Source: Squalus acanthias (Eukaryota). From it: a stretch of 64,000 bases of DNA. The position numbers were made by a program, and so were the translations under genes. Below are positions 33,666-55,342 of the stretch, in pieces. Each line of letters opens with the position of its first letter. Position 1 is the stretch's first letter. The notes under the pieces were generated by a model, which made no database searches, was not told the origin of the DNA, and saw only the letters and a list, made by a program, of their open reading frames with translations. The DNA lies in contig CM059431.1 in assembly GCA_030390025.1 (NCBI GenBank), positions 118,236,001 to 118,300,000 of the forward strand, in the 5' to 3' direction.

Positions 33666-33849
33666 ATAATTTTTTTGTTTATTATGCAATCAAACATTAT
33701 AATATAAATTGAAATTGGAAAGCTAAATGTTTACTGTTGTGTTTTGTGTAACTTATGGGGCTTGGTTAGGGAAGGCCATATTGATGTGGTCTTGGGGAAG
33801 TCCAGAGGAACATAGCAGTGGGATGGCATTCAATTGACCTGAGCTGCTA

Positions 33850-34980: not shown

Positions 34981-34981
34981 T

Positions 34982-35089
34982 ATTACATAGGTTTACATAG
35001 GATATACAGCACAGAAACAGTCCATTCGGCCCAACCAGTCCATGCCGGCATTTACGCTCCACATGAGCCTCCTCCTGTCTTTCCTCATG
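34982..35089 (-). mobile_element. CR1-type 3' end inserted in the H1 transposase; continues at 58431-~58515
   Basis: CATAGG-type tail. The sequence is continuous across provirus B via TSD CATG. Confidence 0.75.
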
Positions 35090-35091
35090 AC

Positions 35092-36773
35092 TGTAGAATT
35101 CGCAAAATTATCACGATTTTATAAATAAGAAGGAGACATATAGTTTCGTACAAACAGCTTTATTTCAGCAGAATGCTGTCAGGTTTTCAAAGTGGACACA
35201 AACAGCCTGTAAAATGGCCGCCACGCCTCGTGGCAGAACGTTCTAGACTTTCAATGAGCAGACAAGATGGCGTTCCAATAAACATTTATGCGAGATCGTA
35301 CAAGACTCAGCACATTTGAGATAATTGACAAGACATAATGGGTTTGCATTTTATACATAAATACTGGAATAAGTCTCCCAGGTGCGAATAAGGGCTATTG
35401 TACCGAGCGATCAAGAACCCATCCAAAGACATTAATATGCAAAATCCCCACGACTCTACGATGAGAGAGCCGTTTGCGGGTAGTTACAGAAAACATTTGG
35501 AAGCCCCAAAACCCCTCCAGGGAGAATACTGGCCGGTTACACAATGGGAGAAATATTAACGGGTACTCAGACAGTTACAAGTATCACCGAAACCCATTAA
35601 ACGGAGATCACCCTATACAAGAAGTTTGAGCGCCAAAACCCTGACAAAAGAAAGACATTAAGATTGGGCGGGAAAAGAGGAATTACAGCACTATAACTGT
35701 AAGGTAGAACCGTCCATCTGTCTCTTGCCTCTTGACTCTTGCCTCTTGACTCTTGCCTCTTGACTCTTGCTCTTGCCGCCTGACTCCTTGCCGCTTGCCT
35801 CGTGCCTCTGCCTCTTGCTGTTTGACTTGCTGGAAGACTATTGAACTTTCTGATCCGCCAGGATCAACCTCGTGGCTTGCCGCGAAGATCTGTGAAGAAC
35901 TGGGCTGTGAAGCCTTGAAGTGGGCACACCATCCCGAGAAGTCGGTAAACGGTGTTGGAACCGAAGGCCCGAGATGAGATGAGATGAGATGAGATGAGAT
36001 GAGATGAGATGAGAAGAGAAGAAGACGACAATACGTATCGCCACGGTCAGTAAGCCCCGACCGCGCCTATAAGTCGAATAAACACTTCCTTGCCCAGGAA
36101 GACCATTCTTTGAGTTTTACAAACTGGTGAGGGCACAGGAAGACTATTTTTTTGAGTCGTGTCGGAACTCCGAGGACAACACAGATCTTCATGACAGCAG
36201 ACGGTCCAGCCTGCTAGCCGGAGCAGAGACGAGTAAACAAGTGGGGTACAGAGACCCCTGATCAACACGTGGGTGGTCAGGTGCTGCAGGAAAAACATCC
36301 GAGCAGAGTTTCGGAATTCTCCGAGTTATCACGAGTGGTGAGCATGAGTCTCGATCCTACAAATCTAGTTTAGGACAGGTATTGATAGGGGAGGGTTTGA
36401 GTTTTAAGGATAATTGTAATGTGTGCCCCCTTTTTCGATGTGTCGTGCGCTCCTCGTTTCCCTAAAATTAGTTACATAACTGCGTGTAAGATTGTACTGT
36501 CATTAATCTGTGCTTATGACATGTATTTCGTAATCTTGAATAATATGCAATAAAGAATTTCCATTTTGCACTATTCAACCGGGTCTACCTGAGTTTTCTC
36601 TGCATTATTGCTCTCGCACCTAAGTCCAGTGTCAGAACCATAAGGGCGAGTGGGTCGAACCACTCACAGGTGTCTAGTGTTACCAGGCTGGCTGGAGACC
36701 AGAACAGGCAACAGGGCCTAACCTCGCACTAGCACCCAGGCTAAGCACAGAGCCACAGGTCTCACCCCTTACA
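35092..36773 (+). repeat. 5' LTR of provirus B
   Basis: TGTAG...CTTACA. TATAA at 35692, AATAAA at 36549, with internal (CTCTTGM)n and (GAGAT)n tracts. Confidence 0.93.
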
Positions 36774-36778
36774 GAAAA

Positions 36779-36796
36779 TGGCGACCGCGGCAGGAC
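36779..36796 (+). promoter_or_regulatory. Primer binding site, tRNA-Arg(TCG)-like (provirus B)
   Basis: TGGCGACCGCGGCAGGAC, separated from the LTR end by the 5-nt spacer GAAAA. Confidence 0.85.
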
Positions 36797-36817
36797 ACTG
36801 GCAGCGAAAAAAAAAAT

Positions 36818-38584
36818 GTGTTAGACCCTGGTATGAATGGGCGAAATGTCATGGAAGAGAGAATAGCAGATTATGTGTTTGGAAAAGTGAATTTGACCAA
36901 GAAATGGATAAGTGACCTGCTGGTGGATAAGCGTCCACTAGAGGCAGCCGAGAGGTGGACAGATAGCAAGGAACATAAAAAAACAGTGGAGAAAGCGGTC
37001 TGGCTGATGTGCTATAAAAGACAAGTCCAAATTTCGGACCAGGTCATCTTAGCGCAGGCAGCTCAGATCAAGAGTTTAGAGGTGGAAATGGACGAGAAGG
37101 TCGCGGGGGGGCAGCAGCTCATCGCGACTTTAAATGCGTTGCATCAAGAACGCCAGTTAGTCGCCAACCACCATGAGGCAAAAATAGATTACCTCGAGTG
37201 CCAGGTCACTGAGGCAAAGTTAAATGAGGGCAGATTAAAGGAACGATGTGCCCGCCTAGCTGCCCAAATAAAAGTCCAGGAAGAGAGCTTAACGGGGGTT
37301 AGGGCGGCATATAAGATGGCCCTCGAGGATAAATTTCAGGGGGCCGATCACAGCGTCTGCCAAAAAGAGATAGGGAACCTTAAAGAGGCCCTGAACAAAG
37401 CGCACGGCATGGTGTGCCTTATCAGCCCGTCCGCACATCAGCCGCTAGTAGATGAGGGATTTCAGAAATCCCCACCGAACAAAGCAGAGGAAGTATTAGC
37501 CACTGTGCCCTCCGCGCCACCCAGCTATTCGGCAACCTGGGTGAGGAAGGAAGTGGTAGAAGTAGAGAAAGAGCCCACTGAGGTAGAAGTGAAGCCGGGA
37601 CCGTTGTGTCCGGTCACGGGTATCAAGAGGGGCTCGAACGGAGCAGGTGGGGAAGAGGGGGATCTCCTCAACCAGCTTGTGTTGCCTCACAGCTCACACC
37701 AGCTGAGGGTTATGATAAGTCACGTACGGAAGCTGGCCGAGTCAGACGACCCTTCCGTACATTTCAGGGAAATAGAGCAAACCGCAGCCATTAACGGCTG
37801 CGACGATGGGGAAAAAGCAAAAATGCTGTTATTCTCATTAGACAGCTCGATCCTTCAGTGTCTCTCAGACGAGAGCAAGAGGGGAACTAATACCTATGGG
37901 GAGCTAAGAGATGAGGTCCTAGAAGTGTTGGGAATGGACGATGAAGGTCCGTTCGTTAGATTGGGACGAACAGTGCAGATGGAGGGAGAACCCCCGAAGG
38001 TTTTCGCCGACAGGCTGTGGCCAGTATACCAGCGTAGCTGCCCAGGCGCGCCAGCGCGTCGCCGCATAGACGGCGCCAGTTTAAATCATTGGCTCAGGTG
38101 TATAGTAACCAACAGTTTGCCAGCTGTCAGGGAGCAGGCAAAAGCGTGGTTTGATCCCACTAACCCCGCCACTACAGAAGAGTCGGTCCTAAATCGACTC
38201 ACGGTAGGGTACCGTAATACCAGGAGTACGGGAGCACATCCCCTTAAGGGAAAGGTGCATGAGGCGCGGCCCGCAGCCCCGGCTCAAAAGGAATGGCATC
38301 AGGAGGGTAACCGCGCCCCGCAGGCCAGTAATGCTTGTTACGGGTGTGGGAAGACAGGGCATTGGCGCAAGAACTGCAGGAACCCTTGGAAGGAGTCCAG
38401 GGATAAAAATCCCGCAGTCCGAGCCCAGGCGCCTGTCTCCGATAGGGGAGCTAGTGCACCTATCCATCCCGATGCGATCGAATCAGTGTTGGGAGCCATG
38501 CGCACCCTCATGATTTCGCATGGAAGGGTGGCAGTTGCTACCGGCCCCGCAGATGCCGCAGCCCCGTCCAATAGTACCCATTGA
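36818..38584 (+). CDS. gag: Gag polyprotein, provirus B
   Basis: Colinear homolog of A gag with PSAPPSY and CYGCGKTGHWRKNC. The ATG at 36778 is put out of frame by an A10 run; in-frame ATGs occur downstream. Confidence 0.9.
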   Translation: MLDPGMNGRNVMEERIADYVFGKVNLTKKWISDLLVDKRPLEAAERWTDSKEHKKTVEKAVWLMCYKRQVQISDQVILAQAAQIKSLEVEMDEKVAGGQQLIATLNALHQERQLVANHHEAKIDYLECQVTEAKLNEGRLKERCARLAAQIKVQEESLTGVRAAYKMALEDKFQGADHSVCQKEIGNLKEALNKAHGMVCLISPSAHQPLVDEGFQKSPPNKAEEVLATVPSAPPSYSATWVRKEVVEVEKEPTEVEVKPGPLCPVTGIKRGSNGAGGEEGDLLNQLVLPHSSHQLRVMISHVRKLAESDDPSVHFREIEQTAAINGCDDGEKAKMLLFSLDSSILQCLSDESKRGTNTYGELRDEVLEVLGMDDEGPFVRLGRTVQMEGEPPKVFADRLWPVYQRSCPGAPARRRIDGASLNHWLRCIVTNSLPAVREQAKAWFDPTNPATTEESVLNRLTVGYRNTRSTGAHPLKGKVHEARPAAPAQKEWHQEGNRAPQASNACYGCGKTGHWRKNCRNPWKESRDKNPAVRAQAPVSDRGASAPIHPDAIESVLGAMRTLMISHGRVAVATGPADAAAPSNSTH

Positions 38585-39703
38585 CTAGAGCCCACGCAGC
38601 CTGCCTACCTGTGTCCTTTTAAAAGACACGCACAGGAGGGGGTCTCCGGTAGGGAGGCCAGGTTAGTAGAGCAGGCCTTGCGGGAGGAGAACGCCCGTTT
38701 AATAAGGAAAGTAGACGGGCTAGAAGGACAGCTTAGAGAGCAGGCCCTGCGGGAGGAGAACGCCCGCTTAATGGGAAAGTTAGACGTGCTCATGCTAGAA
38801 GCACAGCTTAGAGAGATAAAGGCAGCCTAGAGGGTAGCCAGAAGCAGGGAGTATGAGGATTTAAATCAGTGCAAACTGTATAAGCCAGGTGCACAAGGGC
38901 CTACCTCAGGGGCCAAACCTGCGAGTGGGGACTCGCAGCCCCAGGTAGGGCCACAGGGCACACAGGCAGGCAAAGCAGCTTGCATCAGGGGAGAGGACAT
39001 CCTAGAAAAATGTAGGATCTTTTATTGGGGTTGGGAGTCAGATGAGGAAGAGTTCGAGGAGCTCGACGAAGATAGTGACACAAGCGAGGAGGAGCTGGAA
39101 TCGGAGGACGAAAGGGTCGCCCCCGATTCAAGTATAGGGGGGACAGGGGCTGCAGATAGAGATCCACAAAGGGTGGAGGCCGAAGCTGCAGGTCACGAAC
39201 GCAGGGGGGCGGAGCTAGGGGAGGCGGAGCCAGCCGCTGTGGTGGGACCACAGGGCGTGGCGATGGAAGCCTCAGAGCCCGAGCCGCCCGGCTTGAACGT
39301 CTTGCCCTCGAGGGAGGTAGGGACTGCGAGTGAAGGGCCGCCTACTGGGCCAAGTAGGGCGGTGACACAAGCTGCAGATCCCGAGTTCAGGGAGGCGGAG
39401 TCAAGGGAGGCAGAGCCAGCGACTGTGGTGGGACCACAGGTCGCCACGGTGGAAGTCTCGGAATCCGGTCCGTCGGTCCTGAAGTTCCTGCCCCCGGTAG
39501 CTCTCCGTAGGTCAAGTCGGACACCCCAGCCCAGGAAGATATGGTCAAGTCCCCAGAGTGTCCCAAGGCGTAGGTTCAAGGCTAAGGCAGCCCAGGGAGA
39601 GCCCAGTCACAGCGCAGCAGCAACAGGCTGCGGCAGATCAAAGGGAGGGGTCAATGCCCTCCCACCGTTGGGAGAAGCCTGCGGCAGCAACCGCAGAATT
39701 TGA
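38585..39703 (+). pseudogene. ORF-X (coiled-coil + acidic/Pro-rich), in frame with gag, one internal TAG at 38828
   Basis: Manual translation from the gag stop is open except for TAG at 38828 (Tyr in C). Homologous to ORF-X of provirus C. Confidence 0.75.
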
Positions 39704-40011
39704 GTAGGCCGCCCTGGGAACGGGCGGCGCTGTACAGTGATAAGTTTAGGATGAGCTTATAAGTTTATAGTTTTAAATCAGGTTATAAGTTTATAGTTTT
39801 AAATCGGGTTAAGTCGGTAGTTTAATTTTGTTTAACAGAAAGAGGTAAAATGATGGGAGTTTTTTTAGAGATAGGAATAGTTAAAGTCTATCCAGCGCAC
39901 ATGTCTTCTTACGTGAGGCGAGGTCAGGGGACCCGCTCACCCTTCACAAAAGCCAGAGACTCTTGGGAGGCTGGCTACCTCATTCTATCTGATCACAGGA
40001 ACCAAGGAAGG

Positions 40012-42342
40012 ATGGAACGAATTCTAGTATTGCTCGCGGCAATCGGATGTGGATTGGCCTATCGAGGCCGCACCAAGGATGTTGTGGTGTTTGGATGCTC
40101 CGGGGACACGGCCCCCATCGCGGTGGATGGGACCGGAAGGCGAGAGGCTGAGGAGACCACCACCTATTTCCACAAGGGAAGGTGGCCAGGATGGCTGGGA
40201 ACAAATTCAACAGAGTATTCCAGTACATCGGGTTTTGCCTACAAGAGACTTCTTCAATGTGCCCCAAAGTAAGGATCATTGCACCCAGAGTCAGCGTCAC
40301 CGTCGGCAAGCGAATTTGTTTGACTTGTAATGGGAATGTCCCATTGAGCCGATGGTGGTGGCTACGAAAGCTGAGCAAAAACATGAGGAACTCTTCGGTC
40401 GAGTGGGAGCGACTGGGTAATAATACCCATCGGACAATTACGGGGACAAACGGACAAGTGAGAGTCTGTTGGGACAAATGGTGGGAACCGGATGAGGGAA
40501 TTTATGTATGTATGTGGGGGTCAAAGTACGTTTGCCCCAAAGGCATCTCCATATTTTTCATCAATCAATGGCAGGATAACGGACAGGGGATGAGGTGGGA
40601 TGCGAGCACCAGGGGGTGCGGAGCCCCATACTCCCCGATCCCGGTAAATGCCACTGAACTCATTACGCGCCCACGCAAAGCCCCGCCCACGATTCCGGTG
40701 GTTCTAGCTAAGGAAGAAGGCTGCCCTAAAACCAGTAAAGGACCTGGGAATGGTTTGGTACTGGTCCCCACAGACCAGATACAATTTCAGGGGGTACATT
40801 ACGCGGTGGCCTCGGTGATTTTAAATCTCACCGAGGTGCGGTTACCAGAGTGGTGCCCCAAAAAGACGGAACAGTTATATCAGGTCCTGTTGACCAAGAT
40901 GTTTAGACAATTTTATGAGTTTGATTTCGCGGAAATTGATAAAACAAGTTTGTACACCGCACCACATGAAGTTTTGGATCAGGTGGGGAGACAAAGAGTG
41001 GGGGGTTGTGAACGACGTGTTCACTGCTTTCAATACAGGTACATCTGTGGTCAACGCTCTAGACAGCGTGGAGCTGCAGACCCAGATTAATGGCTTAAAA
41101 ACGCAATTAAAAAGCATTCTCACAGATGAAAATAAGGTGGTTGGGTTTGGGTTACACGAGGACCAGGCCATGACTCTCCATTTAAAAGAAATAAAAGCCG
41201 AACTAGAGAAACATGCGCGTACGGTAAATGCCCTGATTAGGGAAGATCGGAATGCGTCCGATCAGGCTGCGCAGAATGAGGTGTGCGTGCTTTACGGGGC
41301 GTGGTTACTGGGCGAGGGCCGCAGTAATTTGGAGGATTTAAAACAAGGTTTGGTCCCGTCCTGGATAAGTAACAAACACCTGCAGGCGCTCCACCCTTTT
41401 TAGAACGCATTAAGCCCGTGCCAGCTCAGGCTAGCTTCAGAAGCATACCCAGTCCCCGTGGACTGTGGACGATCAAACCATACTATGCCGGTTTTGAGCG
41501 ACACAACAAAGCCCGCCCCGGTGTATCGGGTAGAGAACATTGATGTCATTCAGGGGGGAGCCCACATTCGCTATGCAGCGGTTCCACCTTACGTCATCCG
41601 CTGGGAGCAAACGATGACAGGTACAGATCTCTCTGGTTGTCGTGGCCGGGGAGCACACATAATACTGTGTCCCCAGCACTTGAATGCCTTTTTAACACCA
41701 CAGTGTGGGTTCAGATCGGCTGGCGCCAAGCCCATGAATTGCACCATGGAGGCAATGGCACAAGATCATGTGCCTCCGCAGGTAGCATACATCGGGGGTG
41801 GACCATATTGTGTTACCACTGCAGCGCAACACTACCAACATGGAAACCGTAGCCGGTGTCCGGTGAGTGACAGCAGTTTCTGTTTCAAACCCAGGGCGGA
41901 AGTTCAAGTAGCACAACAGCGAATTGTCCCAATCCCTGAACCATCCACGGTTCATCTTACCGTAAAAGAGAACTTCACCGACCTGCAGCGATTCGTCACG
42001 CATTTCGGATACCTCATTCCCCCTCTCCCTGAACACCTCACCAAGCTTTTGAAAGCCGTCGCGGTATCGCAAAAACATTTTTACACCCTAGAACAAAAGA
42101 CTGTCGAGATAGGGACAGAAATTCTGGACATAGTAATTCCACCGTGGTGGAATCTGTTCACCAACATTGAAGTGCCTTCCTGGATTAGAATAGCCTCCCA
42201 CATTTTAGTTGTATGCCAAGTGTTTATTGTGATATACTTATTGGTCGTGCATTGTAAGAGAGGCAAACGCCTCACCAAGAACGAAAACACGGGAGAGTGG
42301 CGAGAACGTTACATGCGCGTGCACGATGAAAGCACCGTGTAA
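40012..42342 (+). pseudogene. env: Envelope glycoprotein (signal peptide, Ig-like domain, class I fusion-like subunit, TM), disrupted
   Basis: MERILVLLAAIGCGLA, DEGIYVC, heptad repeat and TM WIRIASHILVVCQVFIVIYLLVV. Frame changes at ~40265 and ~41000, stop at 41401. Confidence 0.85.
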
Positions 42343-42794
42343 ACAGACAAAATGGCGTCACTCCCGTTTTCCACGTGCGCCTCGGAAGTGTTGTAATCGA
42401 TCGTGATTTTTTTCTCAGAAACTGTAATTAAGTTTGGAACTCTACATGTTTAAGAGTTGGTTTTGATTATTTTTGTTTGGTGTTGTTGAATATGATTGTT
42501 TGTTTTTTTTTTGTTGTTTTCTTTTTCCTTGAATAAAAGATATGCATATGCAGGTGGTGCGAGAGGCATCGGCCTGGTTACACCTGGAAGGAAAATACAA
42601 GTGGTATAAGTTAAAGGCAAATGCTGCCTACGGTGTTATAAGAATGTAGTTTTTCCTGGGAAATAAGGACGACACAGAGACCCTAGATAGTTTTAAGTTA
42701 TGGGAATTTTTGGATGTGGAGAATCGAGATAATATTGCTCACCACAATAGTTTTTGATACGATAAGCGGAGTTATTCACATCAACAGGAGGGAC

Positions 42795-43315
42795 TGTAGA
42801 ATTCGCAAAATTATCACGATTTTATAAATATGAAGGAGACATATAGTTTCGTACAAACAGCTTTATTTCAGCAGAATGCTGTCAGGTTTTCAAAGTGGAC
42901 ACAAACAGCCTGTAAAATGGCCGCCACGCCTCGTGGCAGAACGTTCTAGACTTTCAATGAGCAGACAAGATGGCGTTCCAATAAACATTTATGCGAGATC
43001 GTACAAGACTCAGCACATTTGAGATAATTGACAAGACATAATGGGTTTGCATTTTATACATAAATACTGGAATCGGTCTCCCAGGTGCGAATAAGGGCTA
43101 TTGTACCAAGCGATCAAGAACCCATCCAAAGACATTAATATGCAAAATCCCCACAACTCTACGATGAGAGAGCCGTTTGCGGGTAGTTACAGAAAGCATT
43201 TGGAAGCCCCAAAACCCCTCCAGGGAGAATACTGACCGGTTCCACAATGGGAGAAGTATTAACGGGTACTCAGACAGTTACAAGTATCACCGAAACCCAT
43301 TAAACGGAGATCACC
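42795..43315 (+). repeat. 3' LTR of provirus B, first part
   Basis: Matches the sequence from 35092 onward and is cut after GATCACC. Confidence 0.92.
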
Positions 43316-44967
43316 TGTAAGGGTTTTGACACGCCTGTGGCTCTGTGCTTAGCCTGGGTGCTAGTGCGAGGTTAGGCCTTGTTGCCTGTTCTGGTCTCCA
43401 GCCAGCCTGGTAGCACTAGACACCTGAGAGTGGTTCGACCCACTCGCCCTTACGGTTCTGACACTGGACTTAGTTGCGAGAGCAATAATGCAGAGAAAAC
43501 TCAGGTAGACCCGGTTGAATAGTGCGAAATGGAAAATCTTTATTGCATATTATTCAAGATTACGAAATACATGTCATAAGCACAGATTAATGACAGTACA
43601 ATCTTACACGCAGTTATGTAACTAATTTTAGGGAAACGAGGAGCGCACGACACATCGTAAAAGGGGGCACACATTACAATTATCCTTAAAACTTAAACCC
43701 TCCCCTATCAATACCTGCCCTAAACTAGATTTGCAGGATCGAGACTCATGCTCACCACTCGTGATAACTCAGAGAATTCCGAAACTCTGCTCGGATGTTT
43801 TTACCGCAGCGCCTGACCACCCACGTGTTGATCAGGGGTCTCTGTACCCCACTTGTTTACTCGTTTCTGCTCCGGCTAGCAGGTTGGACCGTCTGCTGTC
43901 ATGAAGATCTGTGTTGTCCTCGGAGTTCCGACACGACTCGAAAAATAGTCTTCCTGTGCCCTCGTCCCGATGCGATAAAACCCGAAGAATGGTCTTCCTG
44001 TGCCCTCACGCCAGTTTGTAAAACTCAAAGAATAGTCTTCCTGGGCAAGGAAAGTGTTTATTCGACCTACAGGCGCGGTCGGGGCTTACTGACCGTGGCG
44101 ATACGTATGGTCGTCTTCTTCTCTTCTCATCTCATCTCATCTCGGGCCTTCGGTTCCAACACCGTTTACCGACTTCTCGGGATGGTGTGCCCGTTTCAAG
44201 GCTTCACAGCCCAGTTCCACACAGATCTTCGCGGCAAGCCACGAGGTTGATCCTGGCGGATCAGAAAGTTCAAAAGTCTTCTAGCAAGTCGAGCAGCAAG
44301 AGGCAGAGACAGCAGTCAAGAGTCAAGAGCAAGAGAAAGATGGACGGTTGTACCTTACAGTTATAGTGCTGTAATTCCTCTTTTCCCGCCCAATCTTAAT
44401 GTCTTTTCTTTTGTCAGAGTTTTGGCGCTCAAACTTCTTGTATAGGGTGATCTCCGTTTAATGGGTTTCGGTGATATTTGTAACTGCCTGAGTACCCGTT
44501 AATACTTCTCCCATTGTGTAACCGGCCAGTATTCTCCCTGGAGGGGTTTTGGGGCTTCCAAATGTTTCTGTAACTACCCGCAAACGGCTCTCTCATCGTA
44601 GAGTCGTGGGGATTTTGCATATTAATGTCTTTGGATGGGTTCTTGATCGCTTGGTACAATAGCCCTTATTCGCACCTGGGAGACCGATTCCAGTATTTAT
44701 GTGTAAAATGCAAACCCATTATGTCTTGTGATTTATCTCAAATGTGCTGAGTCTTGTCCGATCTCGCACAAATGTTTATTGGAACGCCATCTTGTCTGCT
44801 TATCGAAAAGTCCAGAATGTTCTGCCACGAGGTGTGGTGGCCATTTTACAGGCTGCTTGTGTCCACTTTGAAAACCTGACAGCATTCTGCTGAAATAAAG
44901 CTGTTTGTACGAAACTATATGTCTCCTCCTTATTATATAAAATCGCGATAATATTGCGAATTCTACA
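43316..44967 (-). repeat. 3' LTR of provirus C
   Basis: Complete LTR, preceded on the minus strand by CAGGAGGGAC as in B. Confidence 0.93.
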
Positions 44968-45418
44968 GTCCCTCCTGTTGATGCGAATAACTCCGCTTAT
45001 CGTATCAAAAATATTGTGGTGAGCAATATTATCTCGATTCTCCACATCCAGAAAATCCCCATAACTTAAAACTATCTACGGTCTCTGTGTCGTCCTTATT
45101 TCCCAGGAAAAATTACATTCCTATAACACCGCAGGCAGCATTAGCCTTTAACTTACACCACTTGTTTTTCCTTCCAGGTGCAACCAGGCTGATGCCTCTC
45201 GCACCACCTGTATATGCATATTTTTTATTCAAGGGAAAAAAGAAAACAAAAACAAAACCAAACAATCATATTCAACAACAACACCATCACCAAAATAATC
45301 AAAACCAACTCTTAAACAAAGAGTTCCAAACTTAATTACAGTTTCTGAGAAAAATCACGATCGATTACAACACTTCCAAGGCGCACGTGGCAAATGGGAG
45401 TGACGCCATTTTGTCTGG

Positions 45419-47769
45419 TTACACGGTGCTTTCATCGTGCACGCGCACGTAACGTTCTCGCCACTCTCCCATGTTTTCGTTCTTGGTGAGGCGTTTGCCT
45501 CTCTTACAATGCACGACCAATAAGTATATCACAATAAACACTTGGCATACTACTAAAATGTGGGAGGCTATCCTAATCCAGGAAGGCACTTCAATGTTGG
45601 TGAACAGATTCCACCACGGTGGAATTACTATGTCCAGAATTTCTGTCCCTATCTCGACAGTCTTTTGTTCTAGGGTGTAAAAATGTTTTTGCGATACCGC
45701 GACGGCTTTCAAAAGCTTGGTGAGGTGTTCAGGGAGAGGGGGAATGAGGTATCCGAAATGCGCGACGAATCGCTGCAGGTCGGTGAAGTTCTCTTTTACG
45801 GTAAGATGAACCGTGGATGGTTCAGGGATTGGGACAATTCGCTGTTGTGCTACTTGAACTTCCGCCCTGGGTTTGAAACAGAAACTGCTGTCACTCACCG
45901 GACACCGGCTACGGTTTCCATGTTGGTAGTGTTGCGCTGCAGTGGTAACACAATATGTTCCACCCCCGATGTATGCTACCTGCGGAGGCACATGATCTTG
46001 TGCCATTGCCTCCATGGTGCAATTCATGGGCTTGGCGCCAGCCGTTCTGAACCCGCACTGTGGTGTTAAAAAGGCATTCAAGTGCTGGGGACACAGTATT
46101 ATGTGTGCTCCCCGGCCACGACAACCAGAGAGATCTGTACCTGTCATCGTTTGCTCCCAGCGGATGACGTAAGGTGGAACCGCTGCATAGCGAATGTGGG
46201 CTCCCCCCTGAATGACACCAATGTTCTCTACCCGATACACCGGGGCGGGCTTTGTTGTGTCGCTCAAAACCGGCATACGTAATACTATACCCATGATAGT
46301 ATGGTTTGATCGTCCACAGTCCACGGGGACTGGGTATGCTTCTGAAGCTAGCCTGAGCTGGCACGGGCTTAATGTGTTCTGAAAAGGGTGGAGCGCCTGC
46401 AGGTGTTTGTTACTTATCCAGGACGGGACCAAACCTTGTTTTAAATCCTCCAAATTACTGCGGCCCTCGCCCAGTAACCACGCCCCGTAAAGCACGCACA
46501 CCTCATTCTGCGCAGCCTGATCGGACGCATTCCGATCTTCCCTAATCAGGGCATTTACCGTACGCGCGTGTTTCTCCAGCTCAGCTATTATTTCTTTTAA
46601 ATGGAGAGTCATGGCCTGGTCCTCATGTAACCCAGACCCAACCACCTTATTTTCATCTGTGAGAATGCTTTTTAATTGCGTTTTTAAGCCATTAATCTGG
46701 GTCTGCAGCTCCACGCTGTCTAGAGCGTTGACCACAGATGTACCTGTGTTGAAAGCAGTGAACACGTCGTTCACAACACCCCTTCTTTGCCTCCCCACCT
46801 GATCCAAAACTTCATGTGGTGCGGTGTACAAACTTGTTTTATCAATTTCCGCGAAATCGAACTCATAAAATTGTCTGAACATCTTGGTCAACAGGACCTG
46901 ATATAACTATTCCGTCTTTTTGGGGCACCACTCTGGTAACCGCACCTCGGTGAGATTTAAAATCACCGAGGCCACCGCGTAATGTACCCCCTGAAATAGT
47001 ATCTGGTCTGTGGGGACCAGTACCAAACCATTCCCGGGTCCCTTACTGGTTTTAGGGCACCCTTCTTCCTTAGCTAGAACCACCGGAATCGTGGGCGGGG
47101 CTTTGCATGGGCGCGTAATGAGTTCAGTGGCATTTACCGGGATCGGGGAGTATGGGGCTCCGCACCCCCTGGTGCTCGCATCCCACCTCATCCCCTGTCC
47201 GTTATCCTGCCATTGATTGATGAAAAATATGGAGATGCCTTTGGGGCAAACGTACTTTGACCCCCACATGCATACATAAATTCCCTCATCCGGTTCCCAC
47301 CATTTGTCCCAACAGACTCTCACTTGTCCGTTTGTCCCCGTAATTGTCCGATGGGTATTATTACCCAGTCGCTCCCACTCGACCGAAGAGTTCCTCATGT
47401 TTTTGCTCAGCTTTTGTAGCCACCACCATCGGCTCAATGGGACATTCCCATTACAAGTCAAACAAATCCGTTTGCTGACGGTGACGCTGACTCTGGGTGC
47501 GATGATCCTTACTTTGGGGCACATTAAAGAAGTCTCTTGTAGGCAAAACCCGATGTACTGGAATACTCTGTTGAATTCGTTCCCAGCCATCCTGGCCACC
47601 TTCCCTTGTGGAAATAGGTGGTGGTCTCCTCAGCCTCTCGCCTTCCGGTCCCATCCACCGCGATGGGGGCCGTGTCCCCGGAGCATCCAAACACCACGAC
47701 ATCCTTGGTGTGGCCTCGATAGGCCAATCCACATCCGATTGCCGCGAGCAATACTAGAATTCGTTCCAT
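45419..47769 (-). pseudogene. env: Envelope glycoprotein of provirus C; C-terminal 490 aa (furin site to tail) open
   Basis: RQRR/GVVNDVFTAFNTGTSVV, heptad repeat, Cys-rich ectodomain and TM. Stops at 47524 and 46907, frame change at ~47512. Confidence 0.88.
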
Positions 47770-48066
47770 CCTTCCTTGGTTCCTGTGATCAGATAGAATG
47801 AGGTAGCCAGCCTCGCAAGAGTCTCTGGCTTTTGTGAAGGGTGAGCGGGTCCCCTGACCTCGCCTCACGTAAGAAGACATGTGCGCTGGATAGACTTTAA
47901 CTAATCCTATCTCTAAAAACTCCCATAATTTTACCTCTTTCTGTTAAACAAAATTAAACTACCGACTTAAACCGATTTAAACTATAACCTTATAACCTCA
48001 TCTAAAACTATAAACTTATTCTTAACCTTAAACTGTACAGTGCCGCCCGTTCCCAGGGCGGCCTAC

Positions 48067-49212
48067 TTAAATCCTGAGAAGGCTGCCACGAGCTTTTCCC
48101 GACGGTGTGAGGGCATTGACCCCTCCCTTTGATCTGCCGCAGCCTGTCGCTGCTGCGCTGGGACTGGGCTCTCCCTGGGCTGCCTTAGCCTTGAGCCTTC
48201 GCCTTGGGACACTCTGGGGACTTGACCATATCTTCCTGGGCTGGGTTATCCGACTTGACCTACGGAGAGCTACCGGGGGCAGGAACTCCAGGACCGACGG
48301 ACCGGGTTCCGAGACTTCCACCGTGGCGACCTGTGGTCCCACCACAGTCGCTGTATCCGCCTCCCCTAACTCCGCCTCCCTGAACTCGGGATCTGCAGCT
48401 TGTGGCACCGCCCTACTTGGCCCAGTAGGCGGCCCTTCACTCGCAGTCCCTACCTCCCTCGAGGGCAAGACGTTCAAGGCGGGCGGCTCGGGCTCTGAGG
48501 CTTTCATCGCCACGCCCTGTGGTCCCACCACAGCGGCTGGCTCCGCCTCCCCTAGCACCTCCCCCCTGCGTTCGGGACCTGCAGCTTCAGCCTCCACCCT
48601 GTGTGGATCTCTATCTGCAGCCCCTGTCTCCCCTGTACCTGAATCGGGGGCGACCCTTTCGTCCTCCGATTCCAGCTCCTCCTCGCTTGTGTCACTATCT
48701 TCGTTGAGCTCCTCGAACTCTTCCTCATCTGACTCCCAACCCCAATAAAATATCTCACATTTTTCTAGGATGACCTCTCCCCTGATGCAAGCTGCTTTGC
48801 CTGCCTGTGTGCCCTGTGGCCCTACCCGGGGCTGCGAGTCCCCACTCGCAGGTTTGGCCCCTCCCCTAAGACAGGCCACCGCCCCTGCTTGTTTCTGTGA
48901 GATCTCACTTGCTGGAGGCTGCAGATTTCTATCCTGTTTTAAATCCTCATACTCCCTGCTCCTGGCTACCCTGTAGGCTGCCTTTATCTCTCTAAGCTGC
49001 CCTTCTAGCACGTCTATTTTTCCCATTAAACGGGCGTTCTCCTCCCGCAAGGCCTGCTCTCTAAGCTGCCCTTCTAGCCTATCTACTTTCCCCATTAAGC
49101 GGGCGTTCTCCTCCCGCAGGGCCTGCTCTTTTAACCTGGCCTCCTTACAGGAGACCCCCTCCTGTGCGTGTCTTTTAAAAGGACACAGGTAGGCGGGCTG
49201 CGCGGGCCCTAG
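48067..49212 (-). CDS. ORF-X, 381 codons, fully open and in frame with gag after TGA-CTAG
   Basis: 39 open codons link the gag stop to ORF 48067-49095. Contains repeated QALREENARLMGK units, an acidic tract and duplicated VVGPQ repeats. Confidence 0.8.
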   Translation of the reverse strand, partial: LGPAQPAYLCPFKRHAQEGVSCKEARLKEQALREENARLMGKVDRLEGQLREQALREENARLMGKIDVLEGQLREIKAAYRVARSREYEDLKQDRNLQPPASEISQKQAGAVACLRGGAKPASGDSQPRVGPQGTQAGKAACIRGEVILEKCEIFYWGWESDEEEFEELNEDSDTSEEELESEDERVAPDSGTGETGAADRDPHRVEAEAAGPERRGEVLGEAEPAAVVGPQGVAMKASEPEPPALNVLPSREVGTASEGPPTGPSRAVPQAADPEFREAELGEADTATVVGPQVATVEVSEPGPSVLEFLPPVALRRSSRITQPRKIWSSPQSVPRRRLKAKAAQGEPSPSAAATGCGRSKGGVNALTPSGKARGSLLRI

Positions 49213-51018
49213 TCATTGGGTACCGGCGGACGGGGCTGTGGCATCTGCGGGGCCGGTAGCAACCGCCACCCTTCCATGCGCACTCATGAGGGTGCGCATG
49301 GCTCCCAACACTGATTCGATCGCGTCGGGATGGATGGGTGCACTAGCTCCCCTATCAGAGACAGGCGCCTGGGCTCGGACTGCAGGATTTTTATCCCTGG
49401 AATCCTTCCAAGGGTTCCTGCAGTTCCTGCGCCAGTGCCCTGTCTTCCCATACCCGTAACAAGCATTGCTGGCCTGCGGAGCGCGGTTACCCTCCTGATG
49501 CCACTCCTTTTGAGCCGGGGCTGCGGGTCGTACCTCATGCACCTTTCCCTTAAGGGGACATGCTCCCATACCCCTGGTATTACAGTACCCTACCGTGAGT
49601 CGATTTAGGACCGACTCCTCTGTAGTGGCGGGGTCAGTGGGATCAAACCATGCTTTTGCCTGCTCCCTGATGGCTGGCAAACTGTTGGCTACTATATACC
49701 TGAGCCAATGAGTTAGACCGGCGCCGTCCAAATCGGCGCGCTCTGGCGCACCTGGGCAGCTACGCTGGTATACTGGCCACAGCCTGTCGGCGAAAACCTT
49801 CGGGGGTTCTCCCTCCATCTGCACTGTTTGTCCCAGTCTAACGAACGGACCTTCATCGTCCATTCCCAACACTTCTAGGACCTCATCTCTTAGCTCCCCA
49901 TAGGTATTAGTTTCCCTCTTGCTCTCGTCTGAGAGACACTGAAGGATCGAGCTGTCTCGTGAGAATAACAGCATTTTTGCCTTTTCTCCATCGTCGCAGC
50001 CGTTAATGGCTGCGGTTTGCTCTACTTCCCTGAAATGTACGGAAGGGTCGTCTGACTCGGCCAGCTTCCGTACGTGACTGATCATAACCCTCAGCTGGTG
50101 TGAGCTGTGAGGCAACACAAGCTGGTTGAGGAGATCCCCCTCTGCCCCATCTATTCCGTTCGGGCCCCTTTTGATATCCGTGACCGGACACAACGGTCCC
50201 GGCTTCACTTCTACCTCAGTGGGCTCTTTCTTTACTTCTACCACTTCCTCCCTCACCCAGGTTGCTGAATAGCTGGGTGGCGCGGAGGGCATAGTGGCTA
50301 ATACTTCCTCCGCTTTGTTCGGTGGGGATTTCTGAAATCCCTCATCCACTAGCGGCTGGTCTGCTGACGGACTGATAAGGCACACCATGCCGTGCGCTTT
50401 GTTCAAGGCCTTTTTAAGGTTCTCTATCTCTTTTTGGCAGACGCTGTGATCGGCCCCCTGAAATTTATCCTCGAGGGCCATCTTATATGCCGCCCTAACC
50501 CCCGTTAAGCTCTCTTCCTGGGCTTTTATTTGGGCAGCTAGGCGGGCACATCGTTCCTTTAATCTACCCTCACTTAACTTTCCCTCAGTGACCTGGCACT
50601 CGAGGTAATCTATTTTTGCTTCATGGTGGTTGGCGACTAACTGGCGTTCTTGATGCAATGCATTTAAAGTCGTGATGAGCTGCTGCCCCCCCGCGACCTT
50701 CTTGTCCATTTCCACCTCTAAACTCTTGATCTGAGCTGCCTGCGCTAAGATGACCTGGTCCGAAATTTGGACTTGTCTTTTATAGCACATCAGCCAGACC
50801 GCTTTCTCCACTGCCTTTTTATGTTCCTTGCTATCTGTCCACCTCTCGGCTGCCTCTAGTGGACGCTTATCCACCAGCAGGTCACTTATCCATTTCTTGG
50901 TCAAATTCACCTTTCTAAACACATAATCTGCTATTCTCTCTTCCATTACATTTCGCCCATTCATACCAGGGTGTAACACATTATTCTCTCGCTGCCAATG
51001 TCCTGCCGCGGTCGCCAT
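49213..51018 (-). CDS. gag: Gag polyprotein (601 aa), provirus C
   Basis: Open ORF homologous to A and B gag. The zinc knuckle has a C>Y change (CYGYGKTGHWRRNC). Confidence 0.92.
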   Translation of the reverse strand: MATAAGHWQRENNVLHPGMNGRNVMEERIADYVFRKVNLTKKWISDLLVDKRPLEAAERWTDSKEHKKAVEKAVWLMCYKRQVQISDQVILAQAAQIKSLEVEMDKKVAGGQQLITTLNALHQERQLVANHHEAKIDYLECQVTEGKLSEGRLKERCARLAAQIKAQEESLTGVRAAYKMALEDKFQGADHSVCQKEIENLKKALNKAHGMVCLISPSADQPLVDEGFQKSPPNKAEEVLATMPSAPPSYSATWVREEVVEVKKEPTEVEVKPGPLCPVTDIKRGPNGIDGAEGDLLNQLVLPHSSHQLRVMISHVRKLAESDDPSVHFREVEQTAAINGCDDGEKAKMLLFSRDSSILQCLSDESKRETNTYGELRDEVLEVLGMDDEGPFVRLGQTVQMEGEPPKVFADRLWPVYQRSCPGAPERADLDGAGLTHWLRYIVANSLPAIREQAKAWFDPTDPATTEESVLNRLTVGYCNTRGMGACPLKGKVHEVRPAAPAQKEWHQEGNRAPQASNACYGYGKTGHWRRNCRNPWKDSRDKNPAVRAQAPVSDRGASAPIHPDAIESVLGAMRTLMSAHGRVAVATGPADATAPSAGTQ

Positions 51019-52788
51019 TTTCTATAAGGGTTTTGACACGCCTGTGGCTCTGTGCTTAGCCTGGGTGCTAGTGCGAGGTTAGGCCTTGTTGCCTGTTCTG
51101 GTCTCCAGCCAGCCTGGTAGCACTAGACACCTGTGAGTGGTTCGACCCACTCGCCCTTACGGTTCTGACACTGGACTTAGATGCGAGAGCAATAATGCAG
51201 AGAAAACTCAGGTAGACCCGGTTGAATAGTGCGAAATGGAAAATCTTTATTGCATATTATTCAAGATTACAAAATACATGTCATAAGCACAGATTAATGA
51301 CAGTACAATCTTACACGCAGTTGTGTAACTAATTTTAGGGAAACGAGGAGCGCACAACACATCGTAAAAGGGGGCACACATTACAATTATCCTTAAAACT
51401 TAAATCCTCCCCTATCAATACCTGTCCTAAACTAGATTTGTAGGATCGAGACTCTTCCTCACCACTCGTGATAACTCAGAGAATTCCGAAACTCTGCTCG
51501 GATGTTTTTACCGCAGCACCTGACTATCCACGTGTTGATCAGGGGTCTCTGTACCCCACTTGTTTACTCGTTTCTGCTCCGGCTAGCAGGTTGGACCGTC
51601 TGCTGTCATGAAGATCTGTGTTGTCCTCGGAGTTCCGACACGACTCGAAAAATAGTCTTCCTGTGCCCTCGCCCCGATGCGATAAAACTCGAAGAATGGT
51701 CTTCCTGTGCCCTCACGCCAGTTTGTAAAACTCAAAGAATAGTCTTCCTGGGCAAGGAAAGTGTTTATTCGACCTACAGGCGCGGTCGGGGCTTACTGAC
51801 CGTGGCGATACGTATGGTCGTCTTCTTCTCTTCTCATCTCATCTCATCTCGGGCCTTCGGTTCCAACACCGTTTACCGACTTCTCGGGATGGTGTGCCCG
51901 TTTCAAGGCTTCACAGCCCAGTTCCACACAGATCTTCGCGGCAAGCCACAAGGTTGATCCTGGCGGATCAGAAAGTTCTAAAGTCTTCTAGCAAGTCGAG
52001 CAGCAAGAGGCAGAGACAGCAGTCAAGAGTCAAGAGCAAGAGAAAGATGGACGGTTGTACCTTACAGTTATAGTGCTGTAATTCCTCTTTTCCCGCCCAA
52101 TCTTAATGTCTTTTCTTTTGTCAGAGTTTTGGCGCTCAAACTTCTTGTATAGGGTGATCTCCGTTTTAATGGGTTTCGGTGATACTTGTAACTGCCTGAG
52201 TACCCGTTAATACTTCTCCCATTGTGTAACCGGCCAGTATTCTCCCTGGAGGGGTTTTGGGGCTTCCAAATGTTTCTGTAACTACCCGCAAACGGCTCTC
52301 TCATCGTAGAGTCGTGGGGATTTTGCATATTAATGTCTTTGGATGGGTTCTTGATCGCTCGGTACAATAGCCCTTATTCGCACCTGGGAGACCGATTCCA
52401 GTATTTATGTGTAAAATGCAAACCCATTGGGGTAGAAATTAGGTCGCGCCCCATTTGGGGCGCAAATATCGTCCGGACGCAAATATTAGCGCCTGGCGCT
52501 AATTATCGGCACTGACAGGAAACTTCACTTTTACCGCCCCGGGAGGTGAGTGGAGCGCTAAAGTAGGCGCTGCACACCTCTCTGAAGGCGCAAAGGCCAA
52601 GGAGTGAGGCGCTAACTCAGCGCACGAGCGCAGCGCAGCTGCTGCCAGTTAGCGAGGGAACACAGACACAATGGCGCTGGACACTTCTTAAAGCGGGGGG
52701 GGGGGCCACTTGCTCCCCAGCCACACCCTGCTCATTGCAGCCTTGAATCTCAGCCTGGAGAGACCTGTAATCCATTTTGCTGCCAAGC

Positions 52789-54667
52789 ATGGAGAGGGTG
52801 AGAGAACGCGCTCATCGCTTCACCGAGCGGGCCTTGGATGCTCTGGTTGACGCAGTGGAGCGCAGACGTTGCATGCTGTTCCCGGAGAGTGGCAGGAGGC
52901 CTTTGCCACGCGATTTCAGAAGAGTGTGGAGGGAGGTGGCTCAGAGCGTCTCCTCCAGGAGCATGGTGCCCAGGACCCATGTTCAATGCCGCAAAAAGTT
53001 CAACGACCTCACTCGGGTCGTATGGGTGAGTGGCTTTTTCTCAATACCTCTCCATCCCTCCATCTCAACCTCACTCTATGGCCAGAGGGTCTTAAAACCC
53101 CAATGCACAACACTCATCCAACACCTATGGCCCTTTCATCAAACACACACACACACATTCCACACTTTGCATACAGTAAGGGCTATTCACCTATGGGAGG
53201 CACATCAGGCAAGACCATGGCTGCATACAGTAAGGGCTATTCACCTATGGGAGGCACATCAGGCAAGACCATGGCTGCATACAGTATGGGCTATTCACCT
53301 ATGGGAGGCACATCAGGCAAGACCATGGCTGTATATTTACTCAGATGCTGTCCTTTTTCTTGCAGGCTGAGCTGGCTCATAATCGGAGACAGCAGCAACG
53401 GACGGATGGAGGGCGGCTTCAGCTGCAACCCCTCAGCGATCTGGAGGAGCGCGTCCACAGGATTGTGGCAAGCCGGGTGATCGGTCCCGTCGCCACTGGA
53501 GATGCCGACCCCGTTGTGGACAGCAATGGTAAGGTCATCACCTTTTTGTCCTCTGTCCTTCCACTTGTCCTTCACAATACCAGCCTTTGACACTTTCAAT
53601 CCAACTTGCTAACTCACTGCACTTATTCCTCCCTTACTGCCACCCTGTCCTCACGCTAAAGCCACTCTTGTACCTCCCTGCTTTCAGATGGTGATTCACC
53701 AGCTGAGGAGACGGGCCCTGAAGCTGCCACTGGGAGTGATGCTGCAGCTGAGGAGGAAGAGGAAGCCGGAGCATCAGTGCCACCCTCTCCCGAGGAAGCC
53801 CATGCCCACACTGGGAACACGCCTTCCCCGGAGGGGAGCAGGGGGGAAGGGGCTGATGATGGTGAAGCTCCAGGACCCAGCGGGCTGCAGCAACGCCATG
53901 GGGGGGGTAGGGAAGAACGGGGGCCTTCTCCCCAGAGGGAGAGTATGCCAGACACTCCTACTGCAATGGACGCAGAGGAGGAGCGGCTGATTGCAGAAAT
54001 GAACACCCAGGCGGTGGGCATGCACACTGAGCTCATGGGTGCAGTGGGAAGGGTGCCCGATTGCATTGAGTCACTGGCAAGGAGTGTGGAGCACTTCGCT
54101 GTAGCACAGGCGGATGCCACACTAACGCTTAGTGCTGCAATTCAGTCAATGGCTGCCGTGATCCCACCTCTGACTGCTCTCATACAGACTCAGATGGAGG
54201 CCACGCGAGCACAGACTGCTGCCAACCTCGATGGTTCGTGCACATGTCCCCGGGGCTGTCACCGCGCCGCAGCAGGCCAGCAATCTGTTCTCCGGCAAAT
54301 TGCTCCGGATGCTGAAGTGCTGCCCCGTGGGAGTGCCAGTGTGTCGGGCGAGCAGGGAGTTGCTGGCCTCTCTCACGATGACAGCATTCCTGCTGCCAAC
54401 ACTGTCACTTCTCCACTGCACTTGCCACCGCCTGTAGGACAGACTGCTGCCGCCCATGCAGAGTTGGTGCAGTCTGCAGCCGGGCCCTCCAGGCCCAGAA
54501 GTGGTCGAGGCCGTCCTTCAGGGGCATCTGCAGTGTCAGGGTCTGACGAGCAGCAGCCTTCCACCAGCCATGCTGCAGCCACTGAGGTCCCATTACGGAG
54601 GAGCAGTAGGGTTAGAAGGGGGGAAGTGCGCAAGGGAAGGAGATCACCCTCGAAAGGCAAAAAGTAG
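52789..54667 (+). CDS. Myb/SANT-like DNA-binding protein of H2; predicted exons 52789-53025, 53366-53528, 53688-54667 (~459 aa)
   Basis: MERVRERAHRFTERALDALVDAVERRR..WREVA..QCRKKFNDL. GT-AG introns with compatible phases give an uninterrupted frame. Confidence 0.82.
53169..53330. repeat. 54-bp tandem repeat, 3 copies, in intron 1 of the H2 Myb gene
   Basis: GCATACAGTAAGGGCTATTCACCTATGGGAGGCACATCAGGCAAGACCATGGCT repeated head to tail. Confidence 0.9.
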
Positions 54668-54680
54668 GAGGTGTGCCAAA

Positions 54681-55047
54681 ATAAGAACATAAGAACATAA
54701 GAAATAGGAGCAGGAGTAGGCCAATCGGCCCCTCGAGCCTGCTCCGCCATTCAATAAGATCATGGCTGATCTGATCCTAACCGCCAATCTACTATCTATC
54801 ACAGAACCATCTCCTGCATCTAACAGAATTGCACACACGAAATAGGAGCAGAATCAGGCTACACAGTCCCTGGGCCCGCTCCACTACCCACAGGGCCATG
54901 ACCGATCCGAACCTAGACTCATGTCCAAATTCCTGCCCGCTCCCCGTAACCCTTAATGCCCTTTACTTCTAGGAAACTGTCTATTTCTGTTTTAAATTTA
55001 ATTAATGTTGTAGCTTCTACAGCTTTTTGTGGCAGCATATTCCATGG
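54681..55047 (-). mobile_element. CR1-type LINE 3' end inserted between the two H2 genes
   Basis: (ATAAGAAC)n tail and the AGGAGCAGGAGTAGGCC 3' UTR, as at 5831 and 59870. Confidence 0.85.
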
Positions 55048-55342
55048 ACCTACCATGGAATATGCTGGTCATTTTTTTATTAAAGGCCGAGGTTCATGGT
55101 CCAACTTTTGTTTAGTGTTTTGGACATTATCTCCAGGTTGTGAGAACCAGTTATGTTATTGACTGTTTTTTTGTGTTTATTTCTATGAGTTTGTCATGAG
55201 GAATTGACACACACAGAGTTTGTAAAATAAATAAGTTTCTGTATTCAAAATATACATGGCTGGTGGTTGGAATTATTGGTGCCTTGGCCGGCTTAGGGGT
55301 TGCGTGCTGGGTTGATTAGTGTTTGTAGCAATGGCAGGGGCC

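Follow-up and report, generated by a model that had tools for sequence, protein, structure and literature searches.

Deleted forms make up the majority of copies of HERV-H, an endogenous retrovirus (ERV) family of the human genome. Six fragments in its gag, pol and env genes have been described as commonly deleted (PMC3253121). Deletions held in common by so many copies point to a defective form that is amplified by proteins made elsewhere. The EAV-HP proviruses of the chicken are few in number. They are described as long terminal repeat (LTR) proviruses that lack the whole of pol at several loci and have lost parts of gag and env as well (PMC3554524). In the koala retrovirus (KoRV) group, recKoRV and the internally deleted KoRV-D and KoRV-E occupy multiple loci, and their spread as defective viruses with KoRV-A or KoRV-B as helper has been proposed; the env of KoRV-D and KoRV-E is described as intact (PMC5696478). 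Complementation in trans is presented as a textbook mode of ERV proliferation, in which functional gag, pol or env genes are not required of the complemented elements (PMC8922424). ERVs of cartilaginous fish have been treated as well (PMC4422223), and keyword searches of the open-access literature returned no pol-deleted ERV family from these animals, which is not proof of absence. Here we analyze a window of 64,000 nucleotides from the shark Squalus acanthias (GenBank assembly GCA_030390025.1, contig CM059431.1, positions 118,236,001 to 118,300,000 of the forward strand; coordinates below are positions in this window). The window holds two proviruses, B and C, in which gag is followed by a further open reading frame (ORF-X) and env, together with a third provirus, A, that has a pol sequence. 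A preliminary description, made from the letters of the sequence, had read B and C as a pol-less retroviral lineage that must borrow Pol from a relative such as A.

Our analysis indicates that B and C are very probably members of a non-autonomous deletion subfamily of single origin, derived from an ERV with gag, pol and an F-like env. It is a real helper-dependent deletion derivative, comparable to the deleted HERV-H, EAV-HP and KoRV forms, and the mechanism is already known; what stands out is its scale, its retention of gag together with env, and the excess of pol-less copies over full-length copies of the same (B) type. The resemblance to HERV-H lies in copies of one ERV family having the same internal deletions. 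However, in the deleted HERV-H forms almost the whole of env is gone, along with parts of gag, whereas the shark element loses pol only, and its gag and env are open in many copies and both appear to be under purifying selection. In contrast to EAV-HP, gag and env are kept whole as genes, in about 1,100 copies. The KoRV forms are few and very recent, KoRV-D and KoRV-E being known as putative somatic integrations only, while the shark form is a large germline family with LTR pairs that differ by 1.5-1.6%. The mechanism invoked is that of the trans-complementation model, yet gag and env look constrained. As a rule, the expansion of ERV families to high copy number is taken to follow the loss of env; the shark form, by contrast, lost pol and kept gag and env, and at about 1,100 copies it outnumbers its full-length siblings by 910 to 383 in the like-for-like count given below.

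Searches were made over the 3.7-Gb assembly, and counts of 30-mer and 54-mer patterns allowed up to two mismatches, so that they are lower bounds. A search with the 601-nt gag/ORF-X junction of B yielded 3590 first-look candidates, and all 40 matches that were scored extend over its whole length, with 95-100% identity and a spread over many contigs. A 30-mer across the pol-less junction has 1107 matches (513 forward, 594 reverse) and its reversed-pattern control none; the corresponding pol-type 30-mer has 2168, A-type and B-type junctions being counted together. Compared like for like with 54-mers, pol-less junctions number 910 and B-type gag ends joined to pol number 383, again with no match to the control. 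The copies lack the enzymes, keep the cis elements of an autonomous partner in the same genome and form many independent insertions with one junction. One junction genome-wide indicates a single deletion event followed by amplification in trans. Recurrent deletion was rejected as an origin because all copies have the same non-homologous insert. B and C are not the sole pol-less copies; about 1,100 copies of the junction lie on many chromosomes, which local duplication does not explain. The earlier proposal that the pol-less genome was itself replicated in trans is upheld by these copies, by target-site duplications (TSDs) of their own and by LTR pairs that are closer (1.5-1.6%) than the LTRs of B are to those of C (4.6%). 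Pol-less junctions also recur on one strand at a spacing of about 7.7 kb, on one contig near 143.66 Mb and at other places; this spacing equals one internal region plus one LTR, and suggests pol-less tandem arrays with common LTRs.

Full-length siblings were found in the same searches. Some pol-type matches directly follow a gag that is 95% identical in protein to that of B, and one full-length sibling combines a B-type LTR (95%) with a pol 94.7% identical to that of A and an env of the same type as in B and C. The gag/pol junction of the sibling is matched at 98-100% by all 40 scored sequences, the query itself among them. Open frames were tabulated for the best-scoring copies only. Among these, 13 of the 48 long rows of a Pol search (53 in all, with five short second pieces) lie in a stop-free frame of at least 1400 codons, the match itself being stop-free, and gag is stop-free in 55 of the 75 best matches.

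Alignment to A confirmed that B and C leave pol at one point, 11 codons past the gag stop. The post-gag peptide reads LEPTQPAYLCP in B, LGPAQPAYLCP in C and LEPAQPVYLCP in A, after which B and C diverge from A. In B, these first 11 pol codons occupy 38585-38616 on the plus strand with the gag frame kept, and homology to A stops at 38616. In place of protease, reverse transcriptase, RNase H and integrase there follows an insert of about 240 nt (38617-38856, plus strand), which has an internal duplication of about 69 nt and reads as a heptad-like coiled coil, and then, at 38857-39703 (plus strand), the C-terminal, post-integrase tail of Pol, in frame, as the last part of ORF-X. Identification of the tail came from A2, a full-length relative on another chromosome, whose 948-codon Pol ORF has RNase_H, Integrase_H2C2 and rve domains and then a long acidic tail. 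Segments 38864-39275 and 39374-42344 of B align to the Pol tail and env of A2 at 82% and 85.5% identity, and ORF-X residues 118-361 match the last approximately 180 residues of its Pol ORF in frame (blastp E = 9e-58). Homology resumes at the very end of the integrase, and about 265 of the approximately 375 ORF-X residues (about 70%) are in-frame Pol tail. By its sequence, ORF-X is a deleted Pol, composed of 11 Pol codons, the insert and the post-integrase tail, and no new gene. A separate gene is supported neither by this composition nor by the ratio of non-synonymous to synonymous substitution rates (dN/dS), which is indistinguishable from off-frame controls.

The ORF-X of B has one in-frame TAG at 38828-38830, within the insert and upstream of the tail, and that of C (48067-49212, minus strand) is open over 381 codons in the gag frame. 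Among the best-scoring copies, ORF-X is stop-free in 98 of 114 match rows, with a usual length of 365-385 codons. Sensitive blastn and tblastx searches of the insert against the window and A2 matched B and C only, and protein searches at near and longer lengths returned no relative of the insert or of ORF-X (protein-atlas scores of at most 0.87). A Pfam scan placed no family on ORF-X or env; a weak Rab11-FIP3 match, below the cut-off, was rejected as coiled-coil noise. At the 5' deletion junction (38604-38640) there is a small palindrome, in which the insert starts with bases close to the reverse complement of those that end the pol segment; this suggests a strand-switch origin.

Apart from the enzymes, B and C retain the structures of an ERV, with paired LTRs that begin TG and end CA, short TSDs, a primer binding site (PBS) and a purine tract. 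The PBS of B (36779-36796, plus strand) is 18 nt long, starts five bases past the LTR, is identical in C and has one mismatch in 18 in A and in A2. The purine-rich tract and the bases before U3 (42783-42794, plus strand) are identical in B, C and the full-length copy A2, and the tract together with the start of U3 is nearly identical between B/C and the full-length relative. The TSDs seen are CACC for C, CATG (plus two bases) for B, GCTT for another copy and CAAT for A. Gag of B (36833-38584, plus strand) is open and contains a single CCHC zinc knuckle, and CTAG comes directly after its TGA stop; gag of C (49213-50964, minus strand) is open too, with the frame open upstream to 51018. From the common ATG both genes have 583 codons and one CCHC box each, and the Pfam zf-CCHC match (E = 0.0015) is below the curated cut-off, the motif being visible in the translation. 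Pfam and ORF translations revealed no protease, reverse transcriptase or integrase domain between gag and env of B or C, in agreement with the preliminary description, and the ERV combination of a gag Cys-His box with pol-encoded protease, reverse transcriptase, RNase H and integrase is not found in B or C, which are without any pol domain. The LTRs, common PBS, purine tract, open gag and 4-bp TSDs claimed for B and C are likewise present, with the qualifications that an insertion splits one LTR of each and that the TSD of B requires two bases to be counted as viral.

The gag frame of B and C continues past the TGA into ORF-X, and env comes after; pol, where present, likewise shares the gag frame across a TGA. 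Of 31 pol-less copies, 30 end gag in TGA with CTAG next to it, as do 9 of the 11 A-type loci whose motif was located. UGA CUAG is described in a preprint as a consensus favoring readthrough (10.1101/2021.04.18.440353), and the context makes a Gag-ORF-X readthrough fusion protein plausible. Folding of the 90 nt past the gag stop gave no significant readthrough structure (z = 0.11 in A, -0.83 in B and -1.79 in C).

Self-alignment of the window and inspection of the element ends demonstrated three nested insertions and not two side-by-side proviruses. B extends from 35092 to 58430 on the plus strand, and C lies inside its 3' LTR, from 57270 to 43316 on the minus strand; the boundaries of 35092 to 52428 first given for the pair therefore cut through both elements. 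The 5' LTR of B (35092-36773, plus strand, TGTAG...CTTACA, 1682 bp) and the internal region (36774-42794) are followed by a first piece of the 3' LTR (42795-43315, plus strand), which ends in CACC, the target of C, and by a second piece (57271-58430, plus strand), which begins with the repeated CACC. Thus C is flanked by a 4-bp TSD of its own. The 3' LTR of C (43316-44967, minus strand) is complete, and its 5' LTR is in two pieces, the first at 57021-57270 and the second at 51023-52428, both on the minus strand. The left TSD of B, CATG at 35086-35089, is repeated at 58431-58434. An extra AC stands at 35090-35091, at the 5' end of B, as if the end had been joined without the usual trimming; the same two bases come after the purine tract and before U3. 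The TSD of B is CATG if this AC is counted as unprocessed viral DNA. The 5' LTR of B differs from the two pieces of its 3' LTR at 27 of 1677 sites (1.63% by the Kimura two-parameter model), the LTRs of C differ from each other at 25 of 1652 sites (1.53%, same model), and LTRs of B and C differ by 4.6%. The nesting of C in an LTR of B with its own TSD, together with these divergences, shows that B and C are separate integrations, as had been claimed, and that C is later than B.

Env was placed downstream of ORF-X in B and C, and this part of the preliminary description stands; the gene is broken by frameshifts and in-frame stops in both. Defects were read in the frame of an open copy. In B (39826-42342, plus strand), the gene of about 844 codons is in four frame pieces, with two 1-nt frameshifts, one in-frame stop and an in-frame deletion of 21 nt; in C (45419-47943, minus strand), it is in three pieces, with one 1-nt frameshift and one in-frame stop. 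Open env genes are common among the 86 best matches, 80 of which are stop-free over a 495-codon part and 52 of which lie in a stop-free frame of at least 835 codons. By cross-matching of coordinates, 21 of the 86 were assigned to a pol-less context and 32 to a full-length context, with 33 unresolved, and long open frames were counted in 14, 22 and 16 of these, respectively. In five of eight confirmed pol-less copies, env is a single frame of 837-844 codons.

To explain these features, we propose a single ancestral genome from which protease, reverse transcriptase, RNase H and integrase were deleted, the opening 11 codons of pol being kept, the insert of about 240 nt gained and the frame resumed at the last integrase residues. 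The product would be gag, TGA, deleted Pol (ORF-X) and env between normal LTRs, with a PBS and a purine tract. Its RNA may be packaged by its own Gag or that of siblings, and would be copied and integrated by the Gag-Pol of full-length siblings in the same cell; Env from either source could be used. As helpers, siblings that match it in LTR, gag and env are the most plausible. Contigs from four sequencing runs of unrecorded type, some of which bridge the pol-less junction, were not used as evidence. A contig end at 39909 on B was tried as a spliced leader and had no match within the window.

Selection was evaluated in 31 pol-less copies, namely B, C and 29 loci picked by DNA similarity at the junction. 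Codon columns with two alleles were sorted into changes in a single copy and changes shared by at least two copies, and the two wrong frames served as controls. For gag, mean pairwise dN/dS is 0.38 over the 31 copies and 0.38 between B and C. Shared gag changes comprise 30 non-synonymous or stop changes to 46 synonymous ones, compared with 117:27 off-frame (p = 7e-10), and single-copy changes 71:44, compared with 186:50 (p = 0.001). For env, dN/dS is 0.29 in the eight confirmed pol-less copies, with 16:23 among shared changes compared with 65:14 in the wrong frames (p = 1.4e-5); between B and C there are 19 non-synonymous and 22 synonymous changes where 77% non-synonymous are expected (binomial p = 1.9e-5), and dN/dS against an A-type relative is about 0.10. 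The N-terminal 219 codons of env showed no constraint in the 31 copies, and this poorly aligned stretch was not used. These comparisons argue for purifying selection on gag and env of pol-less copies: the values of 0.38 and 0.29 are well below 1, and shared changes are far from neutral. In ORF-X, dN/dS is 0.65 overall, 0.41 in the first 95 codons (few sites) and 0.74 in the tail. It has no shared stop, and three of the four indels common to at least two copies are multiples of three, both on small numbers.

Several observations weigh against the reading of B and C as members of a subfamily that was amplified in trans and constrained as such. Constraint on ORF-X is not significant, with shared changes of 20:13 against 47:17 off-frame (p = 0.25) and a dN/dS of 1.05 between B and C in the tail. 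The env sample was partly picked by protein similarity, which biases dN downward, a bias from which the comparison of B with C is free. The 3' end of B gag is 97.6% identical to that of the full-length sibling, compared with 93.0% for C. In the env tree, two full-length copies fall among pol-less ones, one of them as sister to a pol-less copy (support 0.87), and a third env sequence in it turned out later to lie in a full-length context. Gag has 12 splits with support of at least 0.9; eight of these contradict ORF-X splits of equal support, and none of the 12 coincides with one. Given a single origin of the deletion, such conflicts indicate recombination among pol-less genomes and with full-length siblings, and constraint on gag and env could then be inherited from autonomous siblings, so that the selection signal may be borrowed from them and not the pol-less genome's own. 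The same 1-nt env frameshift is found in B (near 40240), in C (near 47560) and in a third copy on another chromosome, and these three copies fall in different gag clades. The common frameshift could be a mutational hotspot, the result of recombination or a sign that an env-defective genome was copied, and some env-defective genomes may indeed have been copied too. Among five pol-less copies checked for TSDs, one has a 3-bp match only, and one 3' end was not captured. Lastly, packaging, complementation in trans, expression of a Gag-ORF-X readthrough protein and use of env are inferred from sequence only. The recombination itself fits the deletion-derivative mechanism, as it would be accounted for by co-packaging with siblings in one particle.

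The Pol donor named in the preliminary description, provirus A or its family, is conceivable but doubtful. Provirus A (12943-20447, plus strand) belongs to a different LTR and gag family and has the TSD CAAT; its parts are a 5' LTR at 12943-14565, whose start had been put at 13085, gag at 14570-16393, pol up to 18973 and a 3' LTR at 18974-20447. Its gag is followed in frame by protease (DTGA), reverse transcriptase (YVDD) and RNase H. About 80 codons past RNase H, at the RNase H/integrase boundary, pol runs straight into approximately position 143 of the 3' LTR, and integrase domains and env are absent. Hence the statement that A has homologous LTR, PBS and gag plus pol stands for protease, reverse transcriptase, RNase H and a PBS that differs at one base in 18, and fails for integrase; A has no env either. 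This 18973/18974 junction is private to A, which alone spans it among 40 scored matches, the other 39 stopping at query position 323-325, where those copies continue into sequence that A has lost; A still has its CAAT duplication, so the deletion occurred after integration. A itself is thus crippled as a lender of Pol, and closer full-length siblings with B-type LTR, gag and env exist.

In favor of the A family, it is abundant, its gag/pol junction being spanned at 97-100% by all 40 scored matches, and it contributes with the B type to the 2168 pol-type matches; the PBS is only one base different, and the purine tract and start of U3 are conserved. Moreover, A-type pol (16320-18973) is 94-95% identical to that of the B-type sibling. 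Against this, A-type gag is about 81% identical to gag of B and C (84% over the last 330 nt) and the LTR can be aligned in part only, at about 76%; with such divergence, co-assembly and packaging should be poorer than with a sibling that shares gag and LTR. The high identity of pol, compared with about 81% in gag, about 85% in env and about 76% in the aligned part of the LTR, looks like an exchange of pol modules between the A-type and B-type families. Full-length relatives carry RVT_1, RNase_H, Integrase_H2C2 and rve domains. The reverse transcriptase scores equally against foamy virus protease-reverse transcriptase and the reverse transcriptases of MLV and XMRV (E about 1e-52), and the integrase scores best against that of PFV; between a gamma/epsilon and a spuma type, the family is given no genus.

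A true satellite retrovirus is an unlikely alternative. Under it, the pol-less genome would evolve as an independent lineage, its Gag, its Env and a functional Gag-ORF-X readthrough protein would all be under selection, and the coiled-coil insert of that protein would be a functional gain, for example in assembly or in hindering the helper. Purifying selection on gag and env within pol-less copies is what this alternative predicts, and the readthrough context at 30 of 31 gag stops, the ORF-X frame of 365-385 codons that is free of stops in most rows, the in-frame state of three of four shared indels, the dN/dS of 0.41 on few sites in the part with the insert, and the larger number of pol-less copies compared with B-type full-length ones all agree with it. 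However, the whole of ORF-X is indistinguishable from off-frame controls, with a tail dN/dS of 0.74-1.05, and an open ORF-X would fit a young age, too. Frequent recombination and the intermixing of gag and env sequences with those of full-length siblings also render it doubtful that the pol-less form is an independent gag/env lineage, as had been supposed. We likewise give a low probability to a satellite that outnumbers its helper, whose infectivity would be maintained by selection on Gag and Env of its own and whose Gag-coiled-coil-Pol-tail readthrough protein would compete for helper particles or interfere with them. If it were true, the family would be a retroviral analogue of satellite viruses and defective interfering genomes, with about a thousand fixed insertions in the germline of a vertebrate. 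Should the constraint on gag and env be the pol-less genome's own, the family would represent a natural split-genome retrovirus, and a germline record of a retrovirus parasitized by its own deletion mutant. The deletion-derivative reading, which is the ordinary one, still leaves a large, apparently young ERV swarm with many open gag, pol and env frames, a clean example for the study of recombination between helper and defective genomes, and an unnamed F-like envelope family common to sharks, a skate and frogs.

It is quite improbable that ORF-X holds a transduced host sequence, in a gag-X fusion like those of acutely transforming, helper-dependent retroviruses. The insert of about 240 nt does lack a counterpart in the full-length relative and elsewhere in the window, and it stands in for the viral enzymes, exactly the site of transduced genes in such viruses. 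Yet the searches described above brought up no protein related to the insert or to ORF-X (all atlas scores below 0.9), about 70% of ORF-X is viral Pol tail, and the insert is short, internally duplicated and begins in a palindrome, which template switching during reverse transcription fits at least as well. Local duplication or gene conversion as the source of B and C, for which their adjacent, inverted positions and one common env frameshift might speak, was rejected, as C has its own CACC duplication within the LTR of B, the LTRs of B and C differ by 4.6% compared with 1.5-1.6% within pairs, the junction occurs about 1,100 times genome-wide and the frameshift is also in a copy on another chromosome.

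The envelope was further characterized from the 495-codon piece of C env (46906-45419), which holds the end of the surface subunit, an RQRR site, a fusion-peptide-like stretch, heptad repeats and a membrane anchor; the RQRR site comes before a hydrophobic stretch, at codon 391 of 844. Relatives of env are few and unnamed, come from sharks, a skate and frogs, and are without a Pfam family apart from apparent fusions. Several carry annotations that join them to host genes (cadherin-related, Niban-like, F-box); such fusions are probably gene-model artefacts. An AlphaFold model of the piece, built on a 31-row alignment, has a mean predicted local distance difference test (pLDDT) score of 65 and a predicted template modeling (pTM) score of 0.36. 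Its best Foldseek matches are the fusion (F) proteins of metapneumovirus, parainfluenza virus 5, respiratory syncytial virus, measles virus and Nipah virus, and the postfusion Env of a foamy virus (8rm1). E values are about 1e-6 to 1e-4 with probability 1.0, but TM-scores are 0.21-0.35, identity is 9-16% and the model has a pLDDT of 65. Against a viral library, matches included chu/arli-like glycoproteins, baculovirus F and walleye epsilonretrovirus Env. The env resembles paramyxovirus and pneumovirus F proteins and foamy virus Env in the predicted order of cleavage site, fusion-peptide-like stretch, long helix, beta-rich domain, second helix and anchor, and differs from them in having no Pfam family, in the low identity and TM-scores just given and in the moderate confidence of the model. 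We interpret it as a putative F-like, unnamed envelope family.

The remaining features of the window are repeats around and within the proviruses. The 5' LTR of C is split by a PIF/Harbinger DNA transposon of 4.6 kb (52429-57020), with 12-nt terminal inverted repeats (GGGGTA...) and a 3-bp ATT duplication; its ORFs encode a DDE_Tnp_4 transposase (55343-56425, minus strand) and a Myb-like protein (52789-53370, plus strand). A 95%-identical Harbinger copy lies in the 3' LTR of the full-length ERV A2 on another chromosome, and its presence within ERV LTRs indicates that this Harbinger family inserted after these ERVs. B itself landed in an older Harbinger copy of about 75% similarity, with flanks at 33171-35089 and 58832-58904; the two flanks match one older copy, order and orientation being conserved. 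A solo LTR of a related subfamily (28442-30122, minus strand) is about 88-92% identical to the LTR of B. Its part 28441-29112 is 97% identical to the LTR fragment adjoining the full-length copy on another chromosome, a match that makes it a member of a third LTR subfamily. Other repeats, at 2952-8325, 60017-61461 and 12065-12874, link the two ends of the window at 80-89% identity, and an RVT_1-bearing ORF lies just upstream of A.

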